Positions 1-32,325 of a stretch of 64,000 nt of DNA are shown one piece after another (within the stretch, counting starts at the first letter, position 1; every line of letters begins with the position of its first letter). This DNA is from Octopus vulgaris (lineage: Eukaryota): assembly GCA_951406725.2 (NCBI GenBank), contig OX597831.1:45880001-45944000 (forward strand), read 5' to 3'. Below the pieces are notes generated by a model. It ran no database searches. It saw only the letters and a list, made by a program, of their open reading frames with translations, and was not told where the DNA came from. The translations under genes and the position numbers were made by a program.

Positions 1-1873
1 TGGATAGATGGGTGGAGTACTACCAGGATCTCTACTCACGAGAGACCATGGTAGCTGAGGCTGCAATCGAGAGTGTCAATATCTTGACAGTCCACCATCT
101 ATAGCAGAGCTCACCAAGACTATTGACTCCCTAGCAAGTAACAAGGCCCCGGGAAAAGATGGCATCCCCTCACAGATCATCAAAGCCGGCAAGAACACCA
201 TCCTGCTTTGGCACCTTCATGAGCTTCTGTGTCAGTGCTAGAAAGAGGGTACAGTCCCTCAGGATATGCAGGATGCTAACATGATTACGCTTTACAAGAA
301 CAAAGGTGACCGTGGTGATTGTAACAATTACTGTTGGAAAGACCTTTGCTTGCGTTATCCTGTCCAGGCTACAACTGCTTGCTTCTCGAATTTATCCAGA
401 ATCGCAGTGTGGCTTTAGAAGAAGCAGATCAACTATTGACATGATATTCTCCATATGCCAACTTCAGGAGAGCAGAAAATGCCATTATATATGGCCTTCA
501 TTGATCTGACAAAGGCCTTTGACTTGGTAAGTAGGAAAGGCCTCTTCATCCTGCTTCAAAAAATCGGATGTCCACCAAAGCTGCTGAGGATCATCAAAGC
601 TTTCCATGATGATATGCAAGGCACCATACAGCACAATGGTTCAACATCAGCCACCTTCCAAATAAAAAACAGGGTAAAGCAAGGTGTCCTTGCTCCTACA
701 TTATTTGGCATCTTCTCGCTGCTGCTCTCACATGCCTTTCAGACATCAGATGATGGAGTGTTTCTGCACAGTAGAAGTGACGGGAAACTGTTCAATCTCT
801 CATGCCTGTGTGCCAAGACCAAAATCAGAAGCATCCTGATCAAGGAGATGCTATTTGCTGATGATGCCACTCTGGTATCACACATAGAAGCCCTACAAAG
901 GCTCATCAACTGTTTTGAGCAAGCATGTAACGACTTTGGCTTAGTTATCAGCCTCAAGAAGACCAACATCATGGGTCAGGCTACATTGGACATCCTAAAC
1001 ATACATATTGGAGACCACAGATTACAGGAGGTGGAGAAGTTTACCTATCTTGGCTCTACCGTCACCTACAACCTATCCCTTGATGCTGAGCTCAATATAC
1101 ACATTGGCAAGGCAGCTGCTGTGATGATCCAGCTCTCCAAACGGGCATAGGACAACAATAAGCTGACCAAGACAACCAAAAATGAAAATTTACCTGGCAT
1201 GTGTACTTAGCACTCTACTGTATGGAAGTGAGACTTGGATGCCATACACATGCCAAGAGCGTTGCCTAAATATCTTTCACCTGCGCTGCCTCCGGAAAAT
1301 CCTCTGCATCAAATGGCAGAACCATATCCCCAACAAAGATGTCCTCAGGCAAGCAGGAATACCAAGCATGTTTGCACTCCTCACACAAAGACGTATGAGA
1401 TGGCTTGGACATGTTAGCCGTATGGAAGATGGCAGAATCCCCAAGGACATACTCTACGGAGAGCTTGCTAGAGGCACTAGGTCTGTGGGAAGACCGTTCT
1501 TACGATACAAGGATGTTTGCAAAAGGGACATGAAGGTCTGCAACATCAATATTAGCAACTGGGAAGCAGTTGCCAGCAACCGTGGAGATTGGCGACGTAA
1601 GTAAAAGAGGGAACACAAATGAGTTACAGACAGAAAGAGAGAGAGAGAGGGGAGAAATTGAAAGAGAAGACAAGACGTCAACAAGAAACTAAGACATTAC
1701 AACCAGCCAGGAACAGTCTTCGCTACATTTGCGGCACCCGCCAGAGGGAGTGTTTGTCCAGGATAGGACTACACAGCCACAGCAGGAGATGTATTAGGAC
1801 ATGAAATGTAAAAGCCGGTCTAGATTATTTTAAGCGCAACTCCATTGTCTCCCGAGACAAAAAGGATGCCAAC
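1..1873 (+). mobile_element. RTE (BovB-like) non-LTR retrotransposon, disrupted ORF2 3' part, running off the window start
   Basis: Frameshifted ORFs 306-1804 carry RT motifs (PESQCGFR, AFIDLTKAFD, VKQGVLAPTLF, LFADD, FTYLGS, WLGHVSRMEDGRIPKDILYGEL) and the C-terminal C..C..RIGLHSH..C motif. 3' end ccattgtctcccgagacaaaaaggatgcc is RTE-like. In-frame stops and frameshifts are present. Confidence 0.93.
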
Positions 1874-2459
1874 AGATGGACAAAAGCATTATCAAGCACA
1901 GCAGCAACACTTCCGTAATCCACACACTCTGGCACAATCTGGACTGGTTTGCAACTTTTTGACAGGACTAATGACATACCCGACTCAACATAAACTCAAT
2001 AGGTTGAAGGGTCCTCATATGTCAAGACCGACTGGAGAATCGATATAATAATGTATATAAACTCTTAGAAATATAGACATTATAAACACAACGCATTTTC
2101 AATGCAAGCGAAAATAGTGTGCCTAGCTCCATCCAAAAATCTTTGTAGCGACTGAGTGACAGGAAAATTAAAGTGAAGACCACAAATTTTACAAATAAAT
2201 TATTCGGAATTAGACGAAAGAAAAAAGGTCATGTCTACGCTGTCAATTTGTTGTGCTCTCTCTCTCGCTATATATATTCGGAATTATTGCTTTATCCCTT
2301 TTACATAATTAGTATATTGACTCGTTATCTCTAAAAGAATATTAAAATGTCAAATATTCCGATTTAGTGGTTTTACATCATTAGCAAATCATCTAATTGA
2401 GTTTCAAAGAGAACTGGCGTAGATAAAATTTTCATTTGATATTTCTCATTTAAAAGGAC

Positions 2460-2718
2460 CCTGCTGGAGCACCGCCTTAAAGAGTTTAGCCAATCAAATC
2501 GACCCCAGTATTTAATCTGTCGGTCACTTTTACCGAACCGCTAGATTATGGGGCTTAAACAAACCAACACCGGTTGTCAAAGCTATATGTGGGTACTAAG
2601 ACATAAAAACGAAACCTCTTTGTTTCCTGATGTCTGATCCACTCACTAGGCTTCATTTGGCCTAGGGTTGTAGTGTTTGCCCAAGGTACAATGCAGTGGG
2701 GCTGAACTCGGAACCATC
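2460..2718 (-). mobile_element. Degenerate tRNA-derived SINE (family 1)
   Basis: Diverged match to the family-1 copies at 8362 and 10008 (gctggagcaccgcc, gaaccgcta, ggttgtcaa, cagtggggctgaac). Confidence 0.7.
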
Positions 2719-2997
2719 TAGAAAAAAAAATCATGAACTGCTAAAAATAAGCGGAAAATTATTACATGGAAAAGAAACGTTTTGTCTGGTTACTGCTGTC
2801 ACAAGGGAGCTAACTCCGTTTACTTTGAAAACTTCTAAAATGTCAGAAGTTTTAAGATTTAAAAAGTTGATTGTAATATGAGGTGATATAATGCTTTCTA
2901 CTGCTAGCAGTGTACAAGCAATGTGTTGTTGCCTATTTTAGCTGGTTGTCAGGAAAATGTAAGTGAACGAAAATAAATACAAAGAAAAACTACGTGA

Positions 2998-3082
2998 CAA
3001 TTTATCGAAAATGGCTAAACGAAAAACAAGACAGTTGTTCGAAGTAGCAGTTGCTCGATTCAACAATTAGTCGAATTATTAA
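2998..3082. repeat. Decayed left inverted terminal/subterminal repeat of the Mutator element
   Basis: aatttatcgaaaa...aacgaaaaa...tcgaattatt aligns with the reverse complement of 5425-5505; periodic tcga motifs. Confidence 0.6.
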
Positions 3083-3314
3083 CAGATTTTAGAAATATAG
3101 AAAGGATTGAAGGGCGGAAATTACATTGTCGTGTTTTTTTATTTTTAGAATGAAGTTGTATATAATGTGTGTGGTGTTGATAGTCTGAAAACCTGTGGCC
3201 TTTTGTCATAGCTCGTTCAAAGTCACAAGAAACTGAATCAATATTTAAAAAAGGTGCAAATGTTTTCGTTCTACAAACTATTTATTTAGCTGATGTAAAA
3301 AATTATAAAAAGCG

Positions 3315-5285
3315 TTATAGTCTCACGTTATGAGCTACTGCGCATAGATAGTCGACTACATTGGTGTATTCTTGAAACGATTCAGTGAGTTTTTTAAGTT
3401 GCTTGGCAGAAATGCGACATTCTTTAGTATTTGATTCGCACTCCATTCCGCTGAGTAATTTTTCTATATTAATCTCGTTCAGAGATTGTTCTCTCTTCAG
3501 CTCTTCTATAAATCTCCAAATTGTTGACCGGTTCGCCGAGACTTGATGCAAAAATGCTCGGTGCCATACTTCAATAGCGTTATTTGTTTCTGGTAAATTC
3601 TGTTGCACTCTGTCAAAACAGGACCACATCTTTAAGTCAAATATAGGTGGACGGCGACCATTGCGAATACATGGTCGTCCTAGCCACGTGTCTTCGAAAT
3701 AGTCAACTACTGGAAGGGCCTCTGGAGGATATACCGCTTCATCTACTAGCGCTCCAAATGCATCATACACTTGCTCTGTTGGAACAAAAGCTAGAGCTAA
3801 AAGCATGCGAATACTTAGTGAAAAATGGGCATCTGTGTCGTATTTCTCTTTTAGATCGAAGGCGCATACTTTTTTGTATAGGCAATGCCCTAAATGAAAA
3901 AAACTACCATACAGATTAACGGAATCGAATTCTGTCCTGACAGCCTTTATCATTGTCGGTTCAAAGTCTGTAGTAATTGAATCAATGTTTGAAAACGGTA
4001 CTAGTGTTTTTACTGTCTTAACAAATTTAATGTACGTTTCTTCTTTCCTATTGGGTAACAATCCAAATATCAAAGGAAGACAAAATCCATTTTTAAGACC
4101 TTGAATTGTATAGAGTTGATCAAATATTACCGGCACTGTTTTAAAGGAGCCATCCATGAAGACATTTTGACACGAATCAAGAACATACAGATTTTGTCGG
4201 GTCGAAAATATCAACATTCTGTCTTCACTTGGGCCCGAATCAAACAACAGGAAGTCGTCTCCCCTATTTGTTTTGGTATATTCGTCAAGAAAGGTTATGT
4301 CTTTTCTATGGTTGGGTACAGGTAACCCGCAAATTTCTCGTTGGCGCACTCGTCGAATCGTCCGTTTTATACTACTAAGCGGGGGTAGTGCGGGAACTGT
4401 TAGATTACTAATATCTGAAGCAGCATTTAAAATTACATATTGAGGTGAATCGTGAGTTTCTTTAGAGTCATTCTTAATTTTTTCCATAAATCGCCGCACT
4501 TCAACATTAACTGGATTACCGGCATGGTTATGTTCTCCAGAAACTGAAATGACCTCATCCCCATCTGTCTTGGCACGACATTTACAATATTTTTTATAAT
4601 TCTGACACTTCCAATATTTTTTATTTTTCAATTCCTTGTCTTTAACAAACAAATATCCATCTACTAACAACATAGGTTTTCCTTTTTCGCTTTGAACAAA
4701 TTTAGCTTTTTTAGTTTTGGTAGGGTCCTCTGGAAAATCTTTACTACATTTGGCTCTTTTTTCTCGAGGTACTTGTTGAATTGTTCGTTTCATGTTACTT
4801 ACTGAGGGTAGTACTGGAGTTGAAGCAAATCTATTATCTGAAGCTACAGTTGAAACTACATGCGGAGGTGAAGAGTCACATGTTTCAAGTTCAATCTTGA
4901 CTTTTCCCGTAAGTTGGGGCGCTTCGACATTAGCTGGAATAACTGTATGATTATGTAAAGGTAGTACTGGAGTGGTAACAGTGCTATTATGTGAAGCTAC
5001 ATTTGAAATTACAAACTGGGGTGAGTTAGGTGTTTCTTCGGGTTCAGTCTTGACTGTTTTCGCAATTCGGCGCGCTTCGACCTTAGCTGGATTAGCAGTA
5101 TGATTATGCTCACAGGAAACAGAAATAATCTCACCACCAGCGGTTTTGGCACGACAGTTACAGTGCTTATTATAATTCTGGCACTTCCAATACGTTCTGT
5201 TTCCAGCTTCCTTCTCTTTGACGAACAAGTATCCATTGAATAATAACAAGGGGTTTCCTTTTTCTTTTGGTACAAATTCAGCCAT
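3315..5285 (-). CDS. FLYWCH zinc finger x2 plus MULE transposase domain protein (Mutator-derived), 656 aa, intronless
   Basis: Uninterrupted ORF with two FLYWCH domains (GYLF..YWKC...C.CRA...HNH), catalytic-type motifs FMDGSFK, TTDFE and TNNAIE.WH, and GSFFH at the CxxH position. Minus-strand AATAAA at 3286-3281. Confidence 0.92.
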   Translation of the reverse strand: MAEFVPKEKGNPLLLFNGYLFVKEKEAGNRTYWKCQNYNKHCNCRAKTAGGEIISVSCEHNHTANPAKVEARRIAKTVKTEPEETPNSPQFVISNVASHNSTVTTPVLPLHNHTVIPANVEAPQLTGKVKIELETCDSSPPHVVSTVASDNRFASTPVLPSVSNMKRTIQQVPREKRAKCSKDFPEDPTKTKKAKFVQSEKGKPMLLVDGYLFVKDKELKNKKYWKCQNYKKYCKCRAKTDGDEVISVSGEHNHAGNPVNVEVRRFMEKIKNDSKETHDSPQYVILNAASDISNLTVPALPPLSSIKRTIRRVRQREICGLPVPNHRKDITFLDEYTKTNRGDDFLLFDSGPSEDRMLIFSTRQNLYVLDSCQNVFMDGSFKTVPVIFDQLYTIQGLKNGFCLPLIFGLLPNRKEETYIKFVKTVKTLVPFSNIDSITTDFEPTMIKAVRTEFDSVNLYGSFFHLGHCLYKKVCAFDLKEKYDTDAHFSLSIRMLLALAFVPTEQVYDAFGALVDEAVYPPEALPVVDYFEDTWLGRPCIRNGRRPPIFDLKMWSCFDRVQQNLPETNNAIEVWHRAFLHQVSANRSTIWRFIEELKREQSLNEINIEKLLSGMECESNTKECRISAKQLKKLTESFQEYTNVVDYLCAVAHNVRL

Positions 5286-5424
5286 TTTTCAATATCATCG
5301 ATCTCGGGACAAAGGGACGTAAATATGATGCATACGCACGCGCGCACATAAACGTTTTAAATTTTAAAAAGATGGTATTAATAAAACCATTATAAACCTT
5401 TTAAAAAACAAAATTGTTTTAATA

Positions 5425-5532
5425 TTTATAATTCGATTACTTTTTGATTCGAATAAATGTTATTTCCATCAATTGCTTTTTCGTTCATTTGTTTTCGATA
5501 AATTACGTTTCGATCAATGGGTCTGGATACTC
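5425..5532. repeat. Right inverted terminal repeat of the Mutator element
   Basis: Reverse complement reads gagtatccagacccattgatcgaaacgtaatttatcgaaaa...; ttcga/ttcgt recurs at about 15-nt multiples (5432, 5448, 5480, 5494, 5509). Confidence 0.6.
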
Positions 5533-5833
5533 AAAACTTAACATTACGCCTCTGCATTTGTATCTCTGTTAATGCAGGTCCGAAGTGAATGAAATTAAAC
5601 GGCGTGTTTACCCGAAAGTGGTTTACTAAACTAGATAGGCATAAAGCAAATGCTACCTTTAAAAAAAAGTATTAGCATATAATTTCTAGGAAATTAAATT
5701 GATATAGGAATGATAAAAATCAATAATGATAATACATGCACACGCTGTGCAGAAAGATGTGTAGACTACATCTAGTATGTACGATACATTTCTTCGCCCA
5801 CTTTATTATGTGTATGAATGAATGAGATTACTT

Positions 5834-5930
5834 GTGTGTGTGGGCTTCCATATATATGTATACGTTTTGTATGAATGTGTGTGTGCGGGGGCTTCCATAT
5901 ATATGTATACGTTTTGTATGAACGTGTGTG
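5834..5930. repeat. Two-copy tandem repeat (~49 bp unit)
   Basis: gggcttccatatatatgtatacgttttgtatgaa occurs twice. Confidence 0.8.
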
Positions 5931-7082
5931 TATATGTATAAATTGATGATCGAATCTGTTATTGTAGCAGTGCATATACAGAAATTAAGTTGGTTTTTGT
6001 TTGTTTTTCGGGGAGCGGAGGACTTTCGTTTCGATAGGTGGCAACAAAAGCTTTAAGTGGGCGAGAAACTTAACTAATAATTAATGTGTGAAGTATTCTA
6101 AACAAACACCGAAATCATTTTTCTTTGTGTGATTAACGAAGGCGGCGCGCTGACAGAAAATCCTTAGCACGCACGCCGGACAAAATGCTTAGCGGCATTT
6201 CGTCTTTAACTCCCAGTCACCAAAAAATAAAAAAAAATAACTGCCCAGAAACCGAATATGAAAACAAAAATTTGCGCAGACGAACGGATGGGGAGAGGAC
6301 TTTCGGAAAATTCACAAGATCCAATTTTTCCATCATAACTTTCAGGAAAATGGATATATATATATATTAGTGAAATTTTATAGAAATATCGTTCAAGTGG
6401 CATAGATTACGATTTTAAAGAAATTTGCGGGGGGGGAAATGTTTTCCGAAGGGGTGGGGAGACGACTTGGAAAATTCACGATCCGTAACTTTCAGGATCC
6501 TGTTTAGCACCCGGTCACCAAAAACAAAGTACTAGGTGTAAAAAAAAAAAATTGATTAAAATAAAGACCTTCACCCGGGAACAAAAAAAATAAACAACCA
6601 GCCTGGGGGATGTTAACATGTGTGGAAAACGAATCTGGGGGAGAAAAAAAAATGCGTGCTGACGTATTTCAAAGAGCCACTCTTGTATTCTGTCACACTG
6701 CATCTCCCTGAGAACTACATTCATTTCGTGAGCCGGCTGTTCCATCGATCAACTGGAACCCTCATCGTTGTAACTGATGGTGCCAGTTAATTTCATGTGT
6801 ATGTGTCAATATATAGTTCTGAAGTTATTCAGAAGGGCTCTTAACCAAGTTTTTAGAAAATTCATTTTTACTTTGAAGAATTTCAAACCTGATTTAAAGG
6901 GATGGGGGGGGGTGACTAGAATTAGTGCATGAACTTGAGAGAAATTAGATATTTTGGAGGTTAGATTCTCTTCCCCCACCACCACCTTCAATGCTCAGCA
7001 ACAGGAATCAGCTAATGTTTCTCGTGAAAATACTGACCACCAAGCCTGTGTTTTATAACCAAACTCAAAGAAATTCTAATAT

Positions 7083-7420
7083 ACTCTTTACTCTATTTGT
7101 TTCAGTCATTTGACTGCGGCCATGCTGGAGCACCGCCTTTAGTGCTTATTCTATCAGTCTCTTTTGCCGAACCGCTAAGTTACGGGCACGTAAACACACC
7201 ATCGGTTGTCAAGCGATGTTGGGGGGACAAACACACACACATATATATATATATATACGACGGGCTTCTTACAGTTTCCGTCTACCAAATCCACTCACAA
7301 GGCTTTGGTCGGCCCGAGGCTATAGTAGAAGACACTTGCCCAAGATGCCACGCAGTAGGACTGAACCTGGAACCATGTGGTTGGTAAGCAAGCTACTTAC
7401 CACACAGCCACTCCTGCACC
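7083..7420 (-). mobile_element. tRNA-derived SINE family 1
   Basis: Pol III A/B-box-like head on the minus strand (gtggctgtgtggtaag...ggttcagtcc), internal (TA)n/(CA)n, aagagt-repeat tail; many near-identical copies in the window. Confidence 0.9.
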
Positions 7421-7696
7421 TTATGGTGCAGTCTTTTATAGATAATAGCTAATGTACACACATCGCTATTTTACCCTGCTCTCTCTTATTATAGTCAACA
7501 ATGTCCACTGAAATGTCTTATTAAACAAGTAATATCTGAAAGAAAGATACATAAAGTTAATGGCTTAAATTTTTTACAGTAGATCTTGCATCATAGAACT
7601 GGCTGGGTGAGGTATATAAATAAAATTCCTAATAGCTACAATTATTTAAGCCTTTTAGAATGAAAAACTATATTTTTTTTTAATTCTTTGTTTTAG

Positions 7697-7788
7697 TGCA
7701 TATGAGTACACAGTCCCTTCTAAAGGAAAATTGCTAGCCAAAACAGATCTCCAGATAGCTTTACCTGAAGGCTGTTATGGAAGAGTGG
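7697..7788 (+). CDS. DUT: dUTPase exon (92 nt)
   Basis: ttttag|TGCATATGAG...AGAGTGG|gtaagt; [30 protein letters not shown]. Confidence 0.95.
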
Positions 7789-9960
7789 GTAAGTTATAAA
7801 CTAATTGTATTGACTTCATTTCCCTTGTAAAATATTACCTACTAGCAGAACCCATAAATATTTCACAGAATTAACAGTAAACTTATTGAGTTATTTCTGT
7901 AAACTTTATCCAAAAAACCTGAAAGCATAGCCTGTGTTGTTTCTATCAAAGGATAGTCGCTCATCTGCTAATGATTGAAAAGTAAAGGAAACTGGAATAC
8001 CATGATTACTTAATACTCAGCACGCTCACTATTTACCTTACCTTCTTTTTCTCCCTTTTCTTTCATTATTCGCTTTACCCTTCAACTAATCAGTGAAAGT
8101 GTTACAGACAGGCTAAGTAACGGAGAAAAAAAACTTAGTTCCTTGCTCACAACCACCTCTCTCCCTCATCTCTCCTCCCTTCCCTCTTCAACTGATCATG
8201 TGAAAACATTGCAGACAGGCTGAGTAATGGAGGAACAAGCAGAATTATAAGATGGAAGCAAGCCATTTTTATCAGTCAAATGGTTATTTGAGCAAATGTC
8301 TAGATTCTAGATTTCCCCTCATTAGTGTAGTTCAACACAAATATTTTCAGGTTGTTATGCTTACTCTTTTACTTGTTTCAGTCATTTGACTGCGGCCATG
8401 CTGGAGCACCGCCTTTAGTCGAGCGAATCAACCCCGGAACTTATTCTTTGTAAGCCCAGTACTTATTCTATCGGTCTCTTTTGCCGAACCGCTAAGTGAC
8501 GGGGACGTAAACACACCAGCATCGGTTGTCAAGCAATGCTAGGGGGACAAACACACACATATATATACATATATACGACAGGCTTCTTTCAGTTTCCGTC
8601 TACCAAATCCACTCACAAGGCATTGGTCGGCCCGGGGCCATAGTAGAAGACACTTGCCCAAGATGCCACGCAGTGGGACTGAACCCGGAACCATGTGGTT
8701 GGTTAGCAAGCTACACAGCCACTCCTGCTTGTTTTAAATTACTTAAGCAAATAAACTCCTTTGTGTACTTGGACCTGTTTTTATAACAAGTTGTTCCATT
8801 TCTACTTTGATTATTTCCTGGTAGTAGGAATCACATCCAGCTGTTATGATGAAATTGTTGACCAAGTACTATTGCAACCAATTTTTAGATTATTAATTAA
8901 AAATTTTGTTTTTAGCTGTCACTGGTGGTAATAGGTCTAATAGTCAGTAGAATAATACGAATGTTTTTATTGATCACTCATCCAGATCAGAAGAGCTGGG
9001 GCTAGTTATTATCTACCTTGCTCGGCAACATAGCAAAGTAAATATTAAGCTATGACAAGATAATGTGATCAGTATCAGGTTGCTTGTTTTTATGTCAGTT
9101 TTTACCTGATGGACTGTATTTTTATTTTGTAGCTCCTCGTTCAGGACTGGCTTTGAAGCATTTCATTGATGTTGGAGGTAAGTTCTCTTCTGTATTACCA
9201 TGTGATATCAAATCGAAGTTATTACTTGGTTACACACATTGTATTGACCACAGTCTACCGACCATGTAAACAAAATTGGGTTACTATGTTAATAAAATTG
9301 TCACAAGCATTATTTCCAATGTGACTGATACCATAATACGATTTTCTTGTATAGAAGTCCATATTTACATTTGTGTAATAAAAAGAGGTGGGAGTATGCA
9401 TTTCTGAAGTTAATCAAACATCAAGTTGGTGCTTCAAAAAAGAATTACAGCTGTCTTTGTTTCTCCTTTCAGCTGGAGTTATTGATCAAGATTACAGAGG
9501 AAATGTTGGTGTTCTTCTTTTCAATTTTTCTGAGACTGATTTCAAAGGTAGGTTGTATTTCCTTTTTCCATGTAATGAGAATAAAGAAAAAAATCATTTT
9601 ATTATTTTACTTTTCTTTATTTCCCAATATAACTGATCTGATCTTTCTGTTTTTTTTATACTTTAGTAAAAGTAATTGTTTTATTTATTTGATGTTTTGT
9701 ATCTCAGTCAACAAAGGGGACCGTGTTGCCCAGCTAGTGTTAGAGAGGATATTCACTGCAGAACTGGAAGAGTGTGTAGTAAGTTGGTTAACTATTGTTC
9801 TTTATTGAATTTACTTGCTCTGTTATAGATTTTTTTTTTCTTTCAATATATTTTTCAGACATGTAAATCTTGATTTTGATTTTCATTTCCTTCTATTTTT
9901 CAGAGTTTGGACGATACATTGCGAGGCGAGGGAGGTTTTGGATCAACTGGTGCAAAGTAA
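7697..9960 (+). CDS. DUT: dUTP diphosphatase (dUTPase), last five coding exons: 7697-7788, 9133-9177, 9473-9547, 9708-9778, 9904-9960
   Basis: Spliced GT-AG translation [112 protein letters not shown] contains motifs 2-5 (PRSG, GVID.DYRG, GDRVAQL, RG.GGFGSTG). AATAAA overlaps the stop (9959-9964). The motif-1 exon was not found in the window. Confidence 0.96.
8362..8728 (-). mobile_element. tRNA-derived SINE family 1 (in DUT intron)
   Basis: Near-identical to 10008-10403. Confidence 0.9.
9133..9177 (+). CDS. DUT: dUTPase exon (45 nt)
   Basis: tgtag|CTCCTCGT...GGAG|gtaagt; [15 protein letters not shown]. Confidence 0.95.
9473..9547 (+). CDS. DUT: dUTPase exon (75 nt)
   Basis: tttcag|CTGGAGTT...AAAG|gtaggt; [25 protein letters not shown]. 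Confidence 0.95.
9708..9778 (+). CDS. DUT: dUTPase exon (71 nt)
   Basis: ctcag|TCAACAAA...TGTGTA|gtaagt; [24 protein letters not shown]. Confidence 0.95.
9904..9960 (+). CDS. DUT: dUTPase terminal coding exon
   Basis: tttcag|AGTTTG...AAGTAA; [18 protein letters not shown]. Confidence 0.95.
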   Translation, partial: SLDDTLRGEGGFGSTGAK

Positions 9961-10007
9961 TAAAATTATTAAATTGTTGGTCTTTGTTTTTTTTTTTTAT
10001 GACAGTA

Positions 10008-10403
10008 TACTCTCTTTACTCTTTTACTTGTTTCAGTCATTTGACTGCGGCCATGCTGGAGCACCGCCTTTAGTCGAGCAAATCGACCCCAGGACTTATT
10101 CTTTGTAAGCCCAGTACTTATTCTATCGGTCGCTTTTGCCGAACCGCTAAGTGACGGGGACGTAAACACACCAGCATCGGTTGTCAAGCAATGCTAGGGG
10201 GAAAAACACAGACACACACACTTATATATATATATATATATGACAGGCTTCTTTCAGTTTCCGTCTACCAAATCCACTCACAAGGCATTGGTCGGCCCGG
10301 GGCTATAGCAGAAGACACTTGCCCAAGATGTCACGCAGTGGGACTGAACCCGGAACCATGTGGTTGGTTAGCAAGCTACTTACCACACAGCCACTCCTGC
10401 GCC
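10008..10403 (-). mobile_element. tRNA-derived SINE family 1, full length
   Basis: Complete head to aagagt tail, about 50 nt downstream of the DUT stop. Confidence 0.9.

Positions 10404-14813: not shown

Positions 14814-32325
<17,512 letters not shown>

Follow-up and report, generated by a model that had tools for sequence, protein, structure and literature searches.

Is a transposase reading frame that has stayed open among transposon debris a mobile element, a dead one, or a gene that its host has kept? This question is raised by a locus of Octopus vulgaris in which an open reading frame (ORF) for a Mutator-type transposase lies between decayed inverted termini, at positions 2998-5532 of a 64,000-nt stretch of contig OX597831.1 (C18:45880001-45944000 in the 2.8 Gb genome). 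The whole stretch is referred to here as the window and all positions are counted in it. The original prediction, made from the letters alone, had read the locus as a possible domestication in progress. We consider it likely that the locus is a single-copy, intronless host gene derived from a Phantom-type element and selected in several Octopus lineages, whose product likely binds DNA through its second FLYWCH finger (FLYWCH2) and which is probably immobile. Since selection has maintained the gene in several Octopus species, it likely encodes a tamed DNA-binding protein instead of being a live transposon. Domestication is therefore supported, however, it does not appear to be in progress, as the gene is established and common to several Octopus lineages. 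The locus had also been called a selected cephalopod gene; selection stands, but the evidence reaches the genus Octopus and not cephalopods as a whole.

The ORF (3315..5285, minus strand) spans 1971 nt with its stop codon, encodes 656 aa, and has no internal stop, as had been stated. Counted from stop to stop (657 aa) it is the longest frame of the window, with the runner-up reaching 236 aa. Pfam detects two FLYWCH domains in the protein (E 7.5e-35) and a Mutator-like element (MULE) domain at 27.5 bits, 0.1 below the gathering score of 27.6. Two of the 656 residues (P430L, D483N) distinguish it from the NCBI entry "uncharacterized protein LOC115219713 [Octopus sinensis]". An AlphaFold model built on 27 aligned homologues has a mean predicted local distance difference test (pLDDT) score of 78, with confident fingers and core (82-92 in finger 2) and disorder at residues 78-189. 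The modelled core finds its best structural match in the IS256-family ISCth4 transposase (PDB 6XGX / 6XG8 / 6XGW, probability 1.00), with weaker matches to Hermes and retroviral integrase cores. The modelled finger matches the fifth finger of human FLYWCH1 (2RPR; TM 0.75, root-mean-square deviation 1.6), which the ORF profile also reaches in a PDB sequence search (E 4e-11); this search returned no solved relative beyond the FLYWCH finger. The zinc ligands W225, C227, C234, H252, and H254 are invariant in 27/27 aligned proteins, and the window protein would be expected to bind DNA. Its N-terminal coding region (4384-5259) is an old internal repeat with units at 4384-4683 and 4960-5259 (73% identical) and a partial third unit at 4807-4955, so that the FLYWCH unit is present in ~2.5 copies. 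These units are too diverged for Tandem Repeats Finder, which found nothing over 2800-5700. The resulting two fingers compare with one in each of 25 outside relatives.

The origin of the gene in a transposon family is evident from its relatives. Phantom transposases have been described as an N-terminal FLYWCH domain joined to a MULE domain (PMC3169594, PMC6446971). The window element resembles Phantom/Muta1 of Aedes aegypti in its FLYWCH domain and MULE DDE core, in the Trp 18 residues before the Glu, in the subterminal repeats of its terminal inverted repeats (TIRs), and in the occurrence of deletion derivatives. A DNA search of its own genome with 2998-5532 returned 20 matches including the query itself. 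The best of the others, on C13 (locus L002), is 67% identical over ~900 nt, and no other copy exceeding 70% DNA identity was found by this search in the 2.8 Gb. The copy-number check thus revealed no near-identical genomic copies. A protein search with the 327 residues of the core, in which 122 of the 662 candidates were scored, gave at least 127 matches with non-self identities of 26-52%; among the matches listed, none of the 126 non-self core matches spans the core without stops. The window gene is the only member of the family in this genome with its frame kept. Miniature inverted-repeat transposable element (MITE)-like deletion derivatives are also found (e.g., L008 and L011), and these are old because they are 72-84% identical (BLAST against the fetched loci). 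These stop-bearing and decayed relatives and derivatives show that the family used to be active in this genome.

Among proteins, the nearest homologue is P0002, which is full-length (654 aa), 87% identical by BLASTP (88% in the alignment), and has the same two-finger layout. The remaining 25 homologues (≥360 aa) have a single finger, are mostly ~455-510 aa long, and show 30-60% identity; they include two Orchesella cincta proteins and a cluster of 13 members at ≥90% identity that contains a Macrobrachium rosenbergii protein. Proteins of ~465 aa from decapods and a springtail are the nearest full-length relatives, and a search among shorter proteins found no homologue above 65% identity. In a FastTree tree of 50 of the 51 query-anchored rows (one, with <180 residues covered, was dropped), the window protein and P0002 lie on short branches and are sister to the decayed C13 copy, which lies on a long branch. 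Unlike Phantom, the window element is single copy, its TIRs are decayed, its target-site duplication (TSD) is not seen, its FLYWCH unit is present in ~2.5 copies, the Cys of its CxxH motif is replaced, and its substitutions between species are of the host-gene type.

The element is found at one shared locus in close relatives. In organism B, a contig of DNA run X4 (2876-5916) joins it to the same unique flanks, as do two contigs (2551-4096 and 4364-5869) of run X8 from organism C, the type of which is not on record, and a second sample of organism A. Presence at the same site, which the original prediction implied, is thereby borne out for organisms B and C. The ORF of the window differs from that of X4 at 7 positions, 6 of which are synonymous and 1 non-synonymous (P430L), and this excess would rarely arise by chance given the 430 synonymous and 1538 non-synonymous sites (binomial P 0.0006-0.003 by transition bias). 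Indels between the two sequences across 2400-6100 are confined to the flanks, with 6 there and 0/6 in the ORF.

More distant comparisons also reveal constraint. The window protein differs from P0002 by 80 substitutions and by 6 gap columns, which leave the frame intact and introduce no stop. In a neutral simulation run to this divergence, for which ~115 substitutions are needed, a mean of 4.6 stops arose and 0.6% of 1000 runs remained stop-free. The substitutions are unevenly spread along the protein (Table 1). FLYWCH2 with its linker stands apart from the rest (Fisher P 7e-6), and the core is ~5x less constrained than FLYWCH2 but is itself slower than the disordered linker (36/326 vs. 33/130, P 2e-4), where the 33 substitutions are accompanied by the 6 gap columns. 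In Octopus bimaculoides, the counterpart is Ob_68647 (XP_014769500, LOC106868647), which is assigned to the class "FLYWCH MULE" in sheet FLYWCH of Table1.XLSX (PMC10027918), where cell sizes imply a protein of ~659 aa and a cDNA of ~2.2 kb. It was compared by hand over the 350 N-terminal residues and the opening 350 nt of the cDNA, a span that ends before the catalytic half. The proteins share the two-finger architecture and ~91% identity over these residues. The first 84 codons carry 12 synonymous and 11 non-synonymous changes (51.7 and 200.3 sites, respectively), giving a dS of ~0.28, a dN of ~0.06, and an omega of ~0.21. Residues 85-192 have undergone ~17 changes and two in-frame indels. 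Residues 193-330 have 1/138 changed (H279R), whereas the synonymous rate would predict ~71 non-synonymous changes. The 63 nt directly upstream of the ATG match the 5' untranslated region (UTR) of the O. bimaculoides cDNA at 62/63 positions, which has a probability of 3.5e-6 if they evolved at the synonymous rate. The dN/dS ratio is therefore well below 1, with an omega of ~0.2 against O. bimaculoides and a 6:1 synonymous excess against organism B, in keeping with the selection that had been proposed.

The catalytic residues bear on what this selection maintains. In the 27-protein alignment, the motifs FMDG, TTDFE, and NNAIE fall on the invariant or near-invariant columns D378, D440, and E572, and W554, 18 residues before E572, is also kept; the earlier claim that D, D, and E are retained is accordingly correct. 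With these four residues retained, it is the CxxH motif that has suffered the loss; it had been reported as broken and does read S-F-F-H, with Ser461 encoded by AGT. Among the 25 non-octopus homologues this motif has Cys in 25/25 and His in 24/25, whereas it is SFFH in the window protein and SFFN in P0002. The 25 outside homologues define 56 near-invariant columns, of which the window protein keeps 54 (changing T380S and C461S) and P0002 also keeps 54 (changing C461S and H464N). The Cys-to-Ser change, carried by both sequences, is older than the split of the window and P0002 lineages. Judging from spacing, D378, D440, E572, and W554 would correspond to D214, D283, E419, and W401 of Muta1. For Muta1, it has been reported that transposition was abolished by mutation of any of the D, D, and E residues, that changing the CxxH His to Ala cut transposition by 99.5%, and that changing the Trp to Phe cut it by 79% (PMC5225508).

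It may be that the domesticated gene has retained an enzymatic activity and provides the host with a nuclease or recombinase for site-specific cutting or joining of DNA. Such a gene would resemble RAG1, PiggyMac, and the MULE-derived alpha3 of Kluyveromyces. The 54/56 near-invariant core columns kept (D378, D440, E572, and W554 included), the slower evolution of the core relative to the disordered linker, and a modelled fold that is confidently that of a DDE transposase are all consistent with this. However, apart from T380S in the window protein, the changes at near-invariant columns fall on CxxH (C461S in both proteins, H464N in P0002), a motif whose His is needed for 99.5% of Muta1 activity (PMC5225508), and the core is far less constrained than FLYWCH2. 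Overall, an enzymatic role seems unlikely to us. A particular form of it, in which the full-length MULE transposase with its DDE residues intact was kept as an octopus host enzyme that cuts or tethers DNA at the terminal repeats of its extinct family, is if anything a little less likely again. If true, it would be without precedent in animals, as a whole MULE transposase would have been recruited into programmed DNA processing or transposon control.

The state of the termini bears on whether the element could still be mobile. The arms at 3017-3082 and 5425-5490 are 71% complementary and those at 2999-3026 and 5477-5504 are 82% complementary. The claim that the inverted termini have diverged strongly holds because the arms are only 71-82% complementary. 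In contrast, the accompanying claim that the outermost left terminus is gone is doubtful, as it takes GAGTATCCAGACC (5520-5532) for the right tip. Besides itself, this sequence hits the window once more, with 2 mismatches, which is no good match; 17/100 shuffles did as well. When both arms are aligned with L008 and L011, the homologous tips fall at ~2996 (GACAATTTATCG) and ~5523 (GACCCATTGATCG). On this better-supported alternative, for which two outside copies speak, 5524-5532 would be flank and the left arm would be without an internal subterminal repeat, not without its tip. The two arms do differ in their number of ATCGAAA-type subterminal repeats, and Muta1 derivatives are reported to vary in their subterminal repeats as well (PMC5225508). 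The search around both ends for a TSD, which in mobile Phantom/MULE elements measures 8-10 bp, found no 9-bp duplication at either choice of tips (2-3/9 matches, by eye), although decay could have erased one.

A low-copy Phantom/MULE transposon, either autonomous or recently dead, is another way to account for the locus; the Octopus copies would then be non-orthologous, vertically persisting, and selected for their own transposition. The intact DDE triad and W554, TIRs with subterminal repeats that are still recognizable, the MITE-like deletion derivatives L008 and L011, and close decapod relatives that look active (the Macrobrachium cluster of 13 members at ≥90% identity) would all suit such an element, and the shared-locus evidence reaches organisms B and C and not O. 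bimaculoides or P0002. However, the 2.8 Gb genome yielded no second copy above 70% DNA identity, the derivatives are old at 72-84% identity, the arms are 71-82% complementary with no TSD seen, and the CxxH Cys has been lost, along with the His in P0002. The strongest constraint also lies on FLYWCH2 and not on the catalytic core. Furthermore, 6/7 of the differences at the shared locus are synonymous, and selection at the level of transposition cannot produce this within one fixed copy. We therefore regard a live or recently dead transposon as very unlikely. A neutral relic, i.e., a dead copy whose frame is open by chance and was picked up by gene predictors, would suit the intron location among transposon debris (a reverse-transcriptase fragment at 440-1150 and a Mos1-type fragment at 26733-27263) and the database name "uncharacterized protein", but it is scarcely credible given that 0.6% of neutral simulations keep the frame at P0002 divergence, that synonymous change is in excess, that FLYWCH2 and its linker have 1/138 changed against ~71 non-synonymous changes expected, and that the ORF has 0 indels against 6 in the flanks.

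The domesticated DNA-binding gene thus remains the preferred reading, yet several points weigh against it. Judged by its sequence, the protein may still be capable of catalysis, since the DDE triad, W554, and 54/56 near-invariant core positions are intact, and the window protein keeps the CxxH His, with only a Ser in place of the Cys. The shared-locus evidence covers organisms B and C, both <1% diverged, and the test in organism B comprises just 7 differences. In addition, synonymous sites of the ORF have diverged from organism B several times more than the unique flanks have (6/430 sites against 3-4 differences in ~1100 nt), an odd excess, though the numbers are small. Run X13, guessed to be RNA, adds K382R together with C35R and C42R at a depth of 2.2, and the latter two would hit zinc ligands of finger 1. 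The O. bimaculoides count was made by hand and covers 84 codons and 350 residues. Finally, the cover over the ORF in RNA-like runs may be pre-mRNA.

Taken as a host gene, the locus could have the following history. An old insertion of a Phantom-type element would have become a host gene before the sampled Octopus lineages split. Afterwards, the finger unit would have expanded to ~2.5 copies, the CxxH motif would have been lost, and the second finger with its adjoining linker would have been held almost unchanged while the core came under moderate constraint. The signals of mobility have been lost, in that the TIRs are decayed, a TSD is not seen, the element is single copy, and the CxxH motif is broken, and the element has probably lost its ability to move. 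Its product may bind DNA in a regulatory role, plausibly at the relic termini of its own family, e.g., at the remains of the ATCGAAA-type terminal repeats.

In plants there are well-documented cases in which a whole transposase of the Mutator superfamily was domesticated (FHY3/FAR1, MUSTANG). MUSTANG is a plant MULE-derived transcription factor, and the alpha3 protein of yeast is a whole-transposase domestication from the same superfamily. To our knowledge, the animal FLYWCH factors FLYWCH1, FLH-1/2/3, and Mod(mdg4) carry no MULE core, whereas the window protein keeps the full transposase. Plant FHY3/FAR1 resembles the window gene in that a whole MULE transposase is described as having become an immobile, conserved, nuclear DNA-binding protein (PMC13306707, PMC8599713). 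Unlike the window gene, FHY3/FAR1 and MUSTANG have a FAR1/WRKY-like DNA-binding domain with SWIM, belong to another kingdom, and have proven functions. Human FLYWCH1, Caenorhabditis elegans FLH-1/2/3, and Drosophila Mod(mdg4) share with the window protein a FLYWCH finger with W-C-C-H-H ligands (PMC10027918; 2RPR structure). ISCth4 would be the closest structural counterpart of the core, as predicted by the model, although it is a bacterial mobile element of 10-13% sequence identity without a FLYWCH finger; its family, IS256, has been described as the prokaryotic sister group of MULEs (PMC5225508).

The window gene is not a new kind of system, as it is annotated and its O. bimaculoides orthologue is already catalogued. 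Mukherjee and Moroz (2023) list Ob_68647 as one row among 788 candidate transposon-derived factors (PMC10027918), and by sequence it appears to be the orthologue, with two fingers and a nearly identical 5' UTR. The main text of that paper has no mention of 68647, and the paper does not treat the orthology, copy number, dUTPase intron, CxxH loss, or domain-specific constraint of the gene. Its candidates are said there to lack homologues in their closest neighbours, a description that fails for the window gene within Octopus (PMC10027918). Our literature search found no functional or evolutionary treatment of the window gene and no mention of LOC115219713, and a search on whole-MULE domestication in animals returned catalogue-level candidates only. 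The locus offers a clean animal case: it is single copy, has orthologues in three or more Octopus lineages, and combines a near-frozen DNA-binding finger with a core that keeps DDE but not CxxH. One could learn from it what a host preserves of a Mutator transposase, and for what reason, and it would add a lineage-restricted putative regulator to a clade with unusual genome and RNA biology.

Table 1. Features of the element and of its host gene, with substitutions against P0002 per protein segment.
Feature	Position	Strand	Substitutions vs. P0002	Basis or remark
Left (3') TIR	2996..3082	+		One subterminal repeat shorter than right arm
Right (5') TIR with ATCGAAA-type subterminal repeats	5425..5523	-		Tip by homology with L008, L011
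FLYWCH-FLYWCH-MULE protein, intronless ORF, 656 codons + stop	3315..5285	-		Pfam, BLASTP
63 nt directly upstream of ATG, likely 5' UTR or core promoter	5286..5348	-		Hand comparison
FLYWCH finger 1 (FLYWCH1), residues 1-62	5100..5285	-	8/62	87% identical to orthologue P0002
Fast-evolving linker with partial third repeat unit, residues 63-192	4710..5099	-	33/130	Predicted disordered
FLYWCH finger 2 (FLYWCH2) + linker, residues 193-330	4296..4709	-	3/138	Most conserved part
MULE/IS256-type RNase-H-like transposase core, residues 331-600	3486..4295	-	29/270	
Helical C-terminal tail, residues 601-656	3318..3485	-	7/56	
D378 codon	4152-4154	-		
D440 codon	3966-3968	-		
S461 codon AGT	3903-3905	-		In place of Cys
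H464 codon	3894-3896	-		
W554 codon	3624-3626	-		
E572 codon	3570-3572	-		
3'-UTR copy of coding stretch around D440 (3946-4010)	3202..3266	-		65 nt, 75% identical
dUTPase host gene exons	~7697-7788, 9133-9177, 9473-9547, 9708-9778, 9904-9960 (stop 9958-9960)	+		Spliced contigs

The gene that houses the ORF is a dUTPase gene, whose GT..AG introns are defined by spliced contigs of RNA-like runs. Three of its exons each match Pfam dUTPase at colinear profile positions. A 30-nt loose end before the first exon in the window maps once in the genome, to an exon (L033, G000:C18:45875881) that precedes the window start by 4.1 kb, and the ORF thus lies antisense in a dUTPase intron of ~11.8 kb. The small runs X7, X9, X13, and X17 are guessed to be RNA and their contigs are unstranded. 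Each has one colinear unspliced contig over the ORF (X7 3135-5871, X9 3200-5731, X13 3067-5109, X17 3363-5489). Depth over the ORF in these runs is 3.4-11, compared with 2-4 in nearby intron pieces and ~600-780 in the dUTPase exons, and one RNA-like contig ends at 5871, at a repeat, like the DNA contigs at 5869-5871. As the ORF lies in an intron of a highly expressed dUTPase gene, the neighbouring intron is covered too, and the contigs are unstranded, this cover is not proof of a transcript and the expression evidence for the ORF is ambiguous.

Relative to DNA of the same organism, X13 alone carries T>C at 4141 (K382R) and A>G at 5162, 5183, 5453, and 5456 (plus strand), two of these sites being at a depth of 2.2. 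Such changes could fit A-to-I editing of overlapping sense and antisense RNAs; alleles or errors could also produce them.

On the family tree, octopus genomic copies (L017 at G000:C1:98226017-98229751 and L002 on C13) interleave with proteins of decapods (Macrobrachium, Palaemon), and one decayed octopus copy groups with a Macrobrachium protein. The pattern is a hint that the family may have spread horizontally between predator and prey, in a direction that cannot be claimed because the tree includes decayed copies. The 3'-UTR copy of the coding stretch around D440 is a feature of the family, since the decayed copies L002, L005, and L008 carry it too.

Short repeats of very high copy number lie at 2400-2770, 6800-7600, 8000-8800, and 10000-10400, where contig depth adds up to 10^3 to 10^5 in all runs. 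All assemblies are interrupted at the borders of these repeats, which also delimit the contigs covering the element. Elsewhere, the window holds a reverse-transcriptase fragment (440-1150, plus strand; RVT_1, E 1e-15) and a Mos1-type helix-turn-helix fragment (26733-27263, plus strand; E 1e-9).

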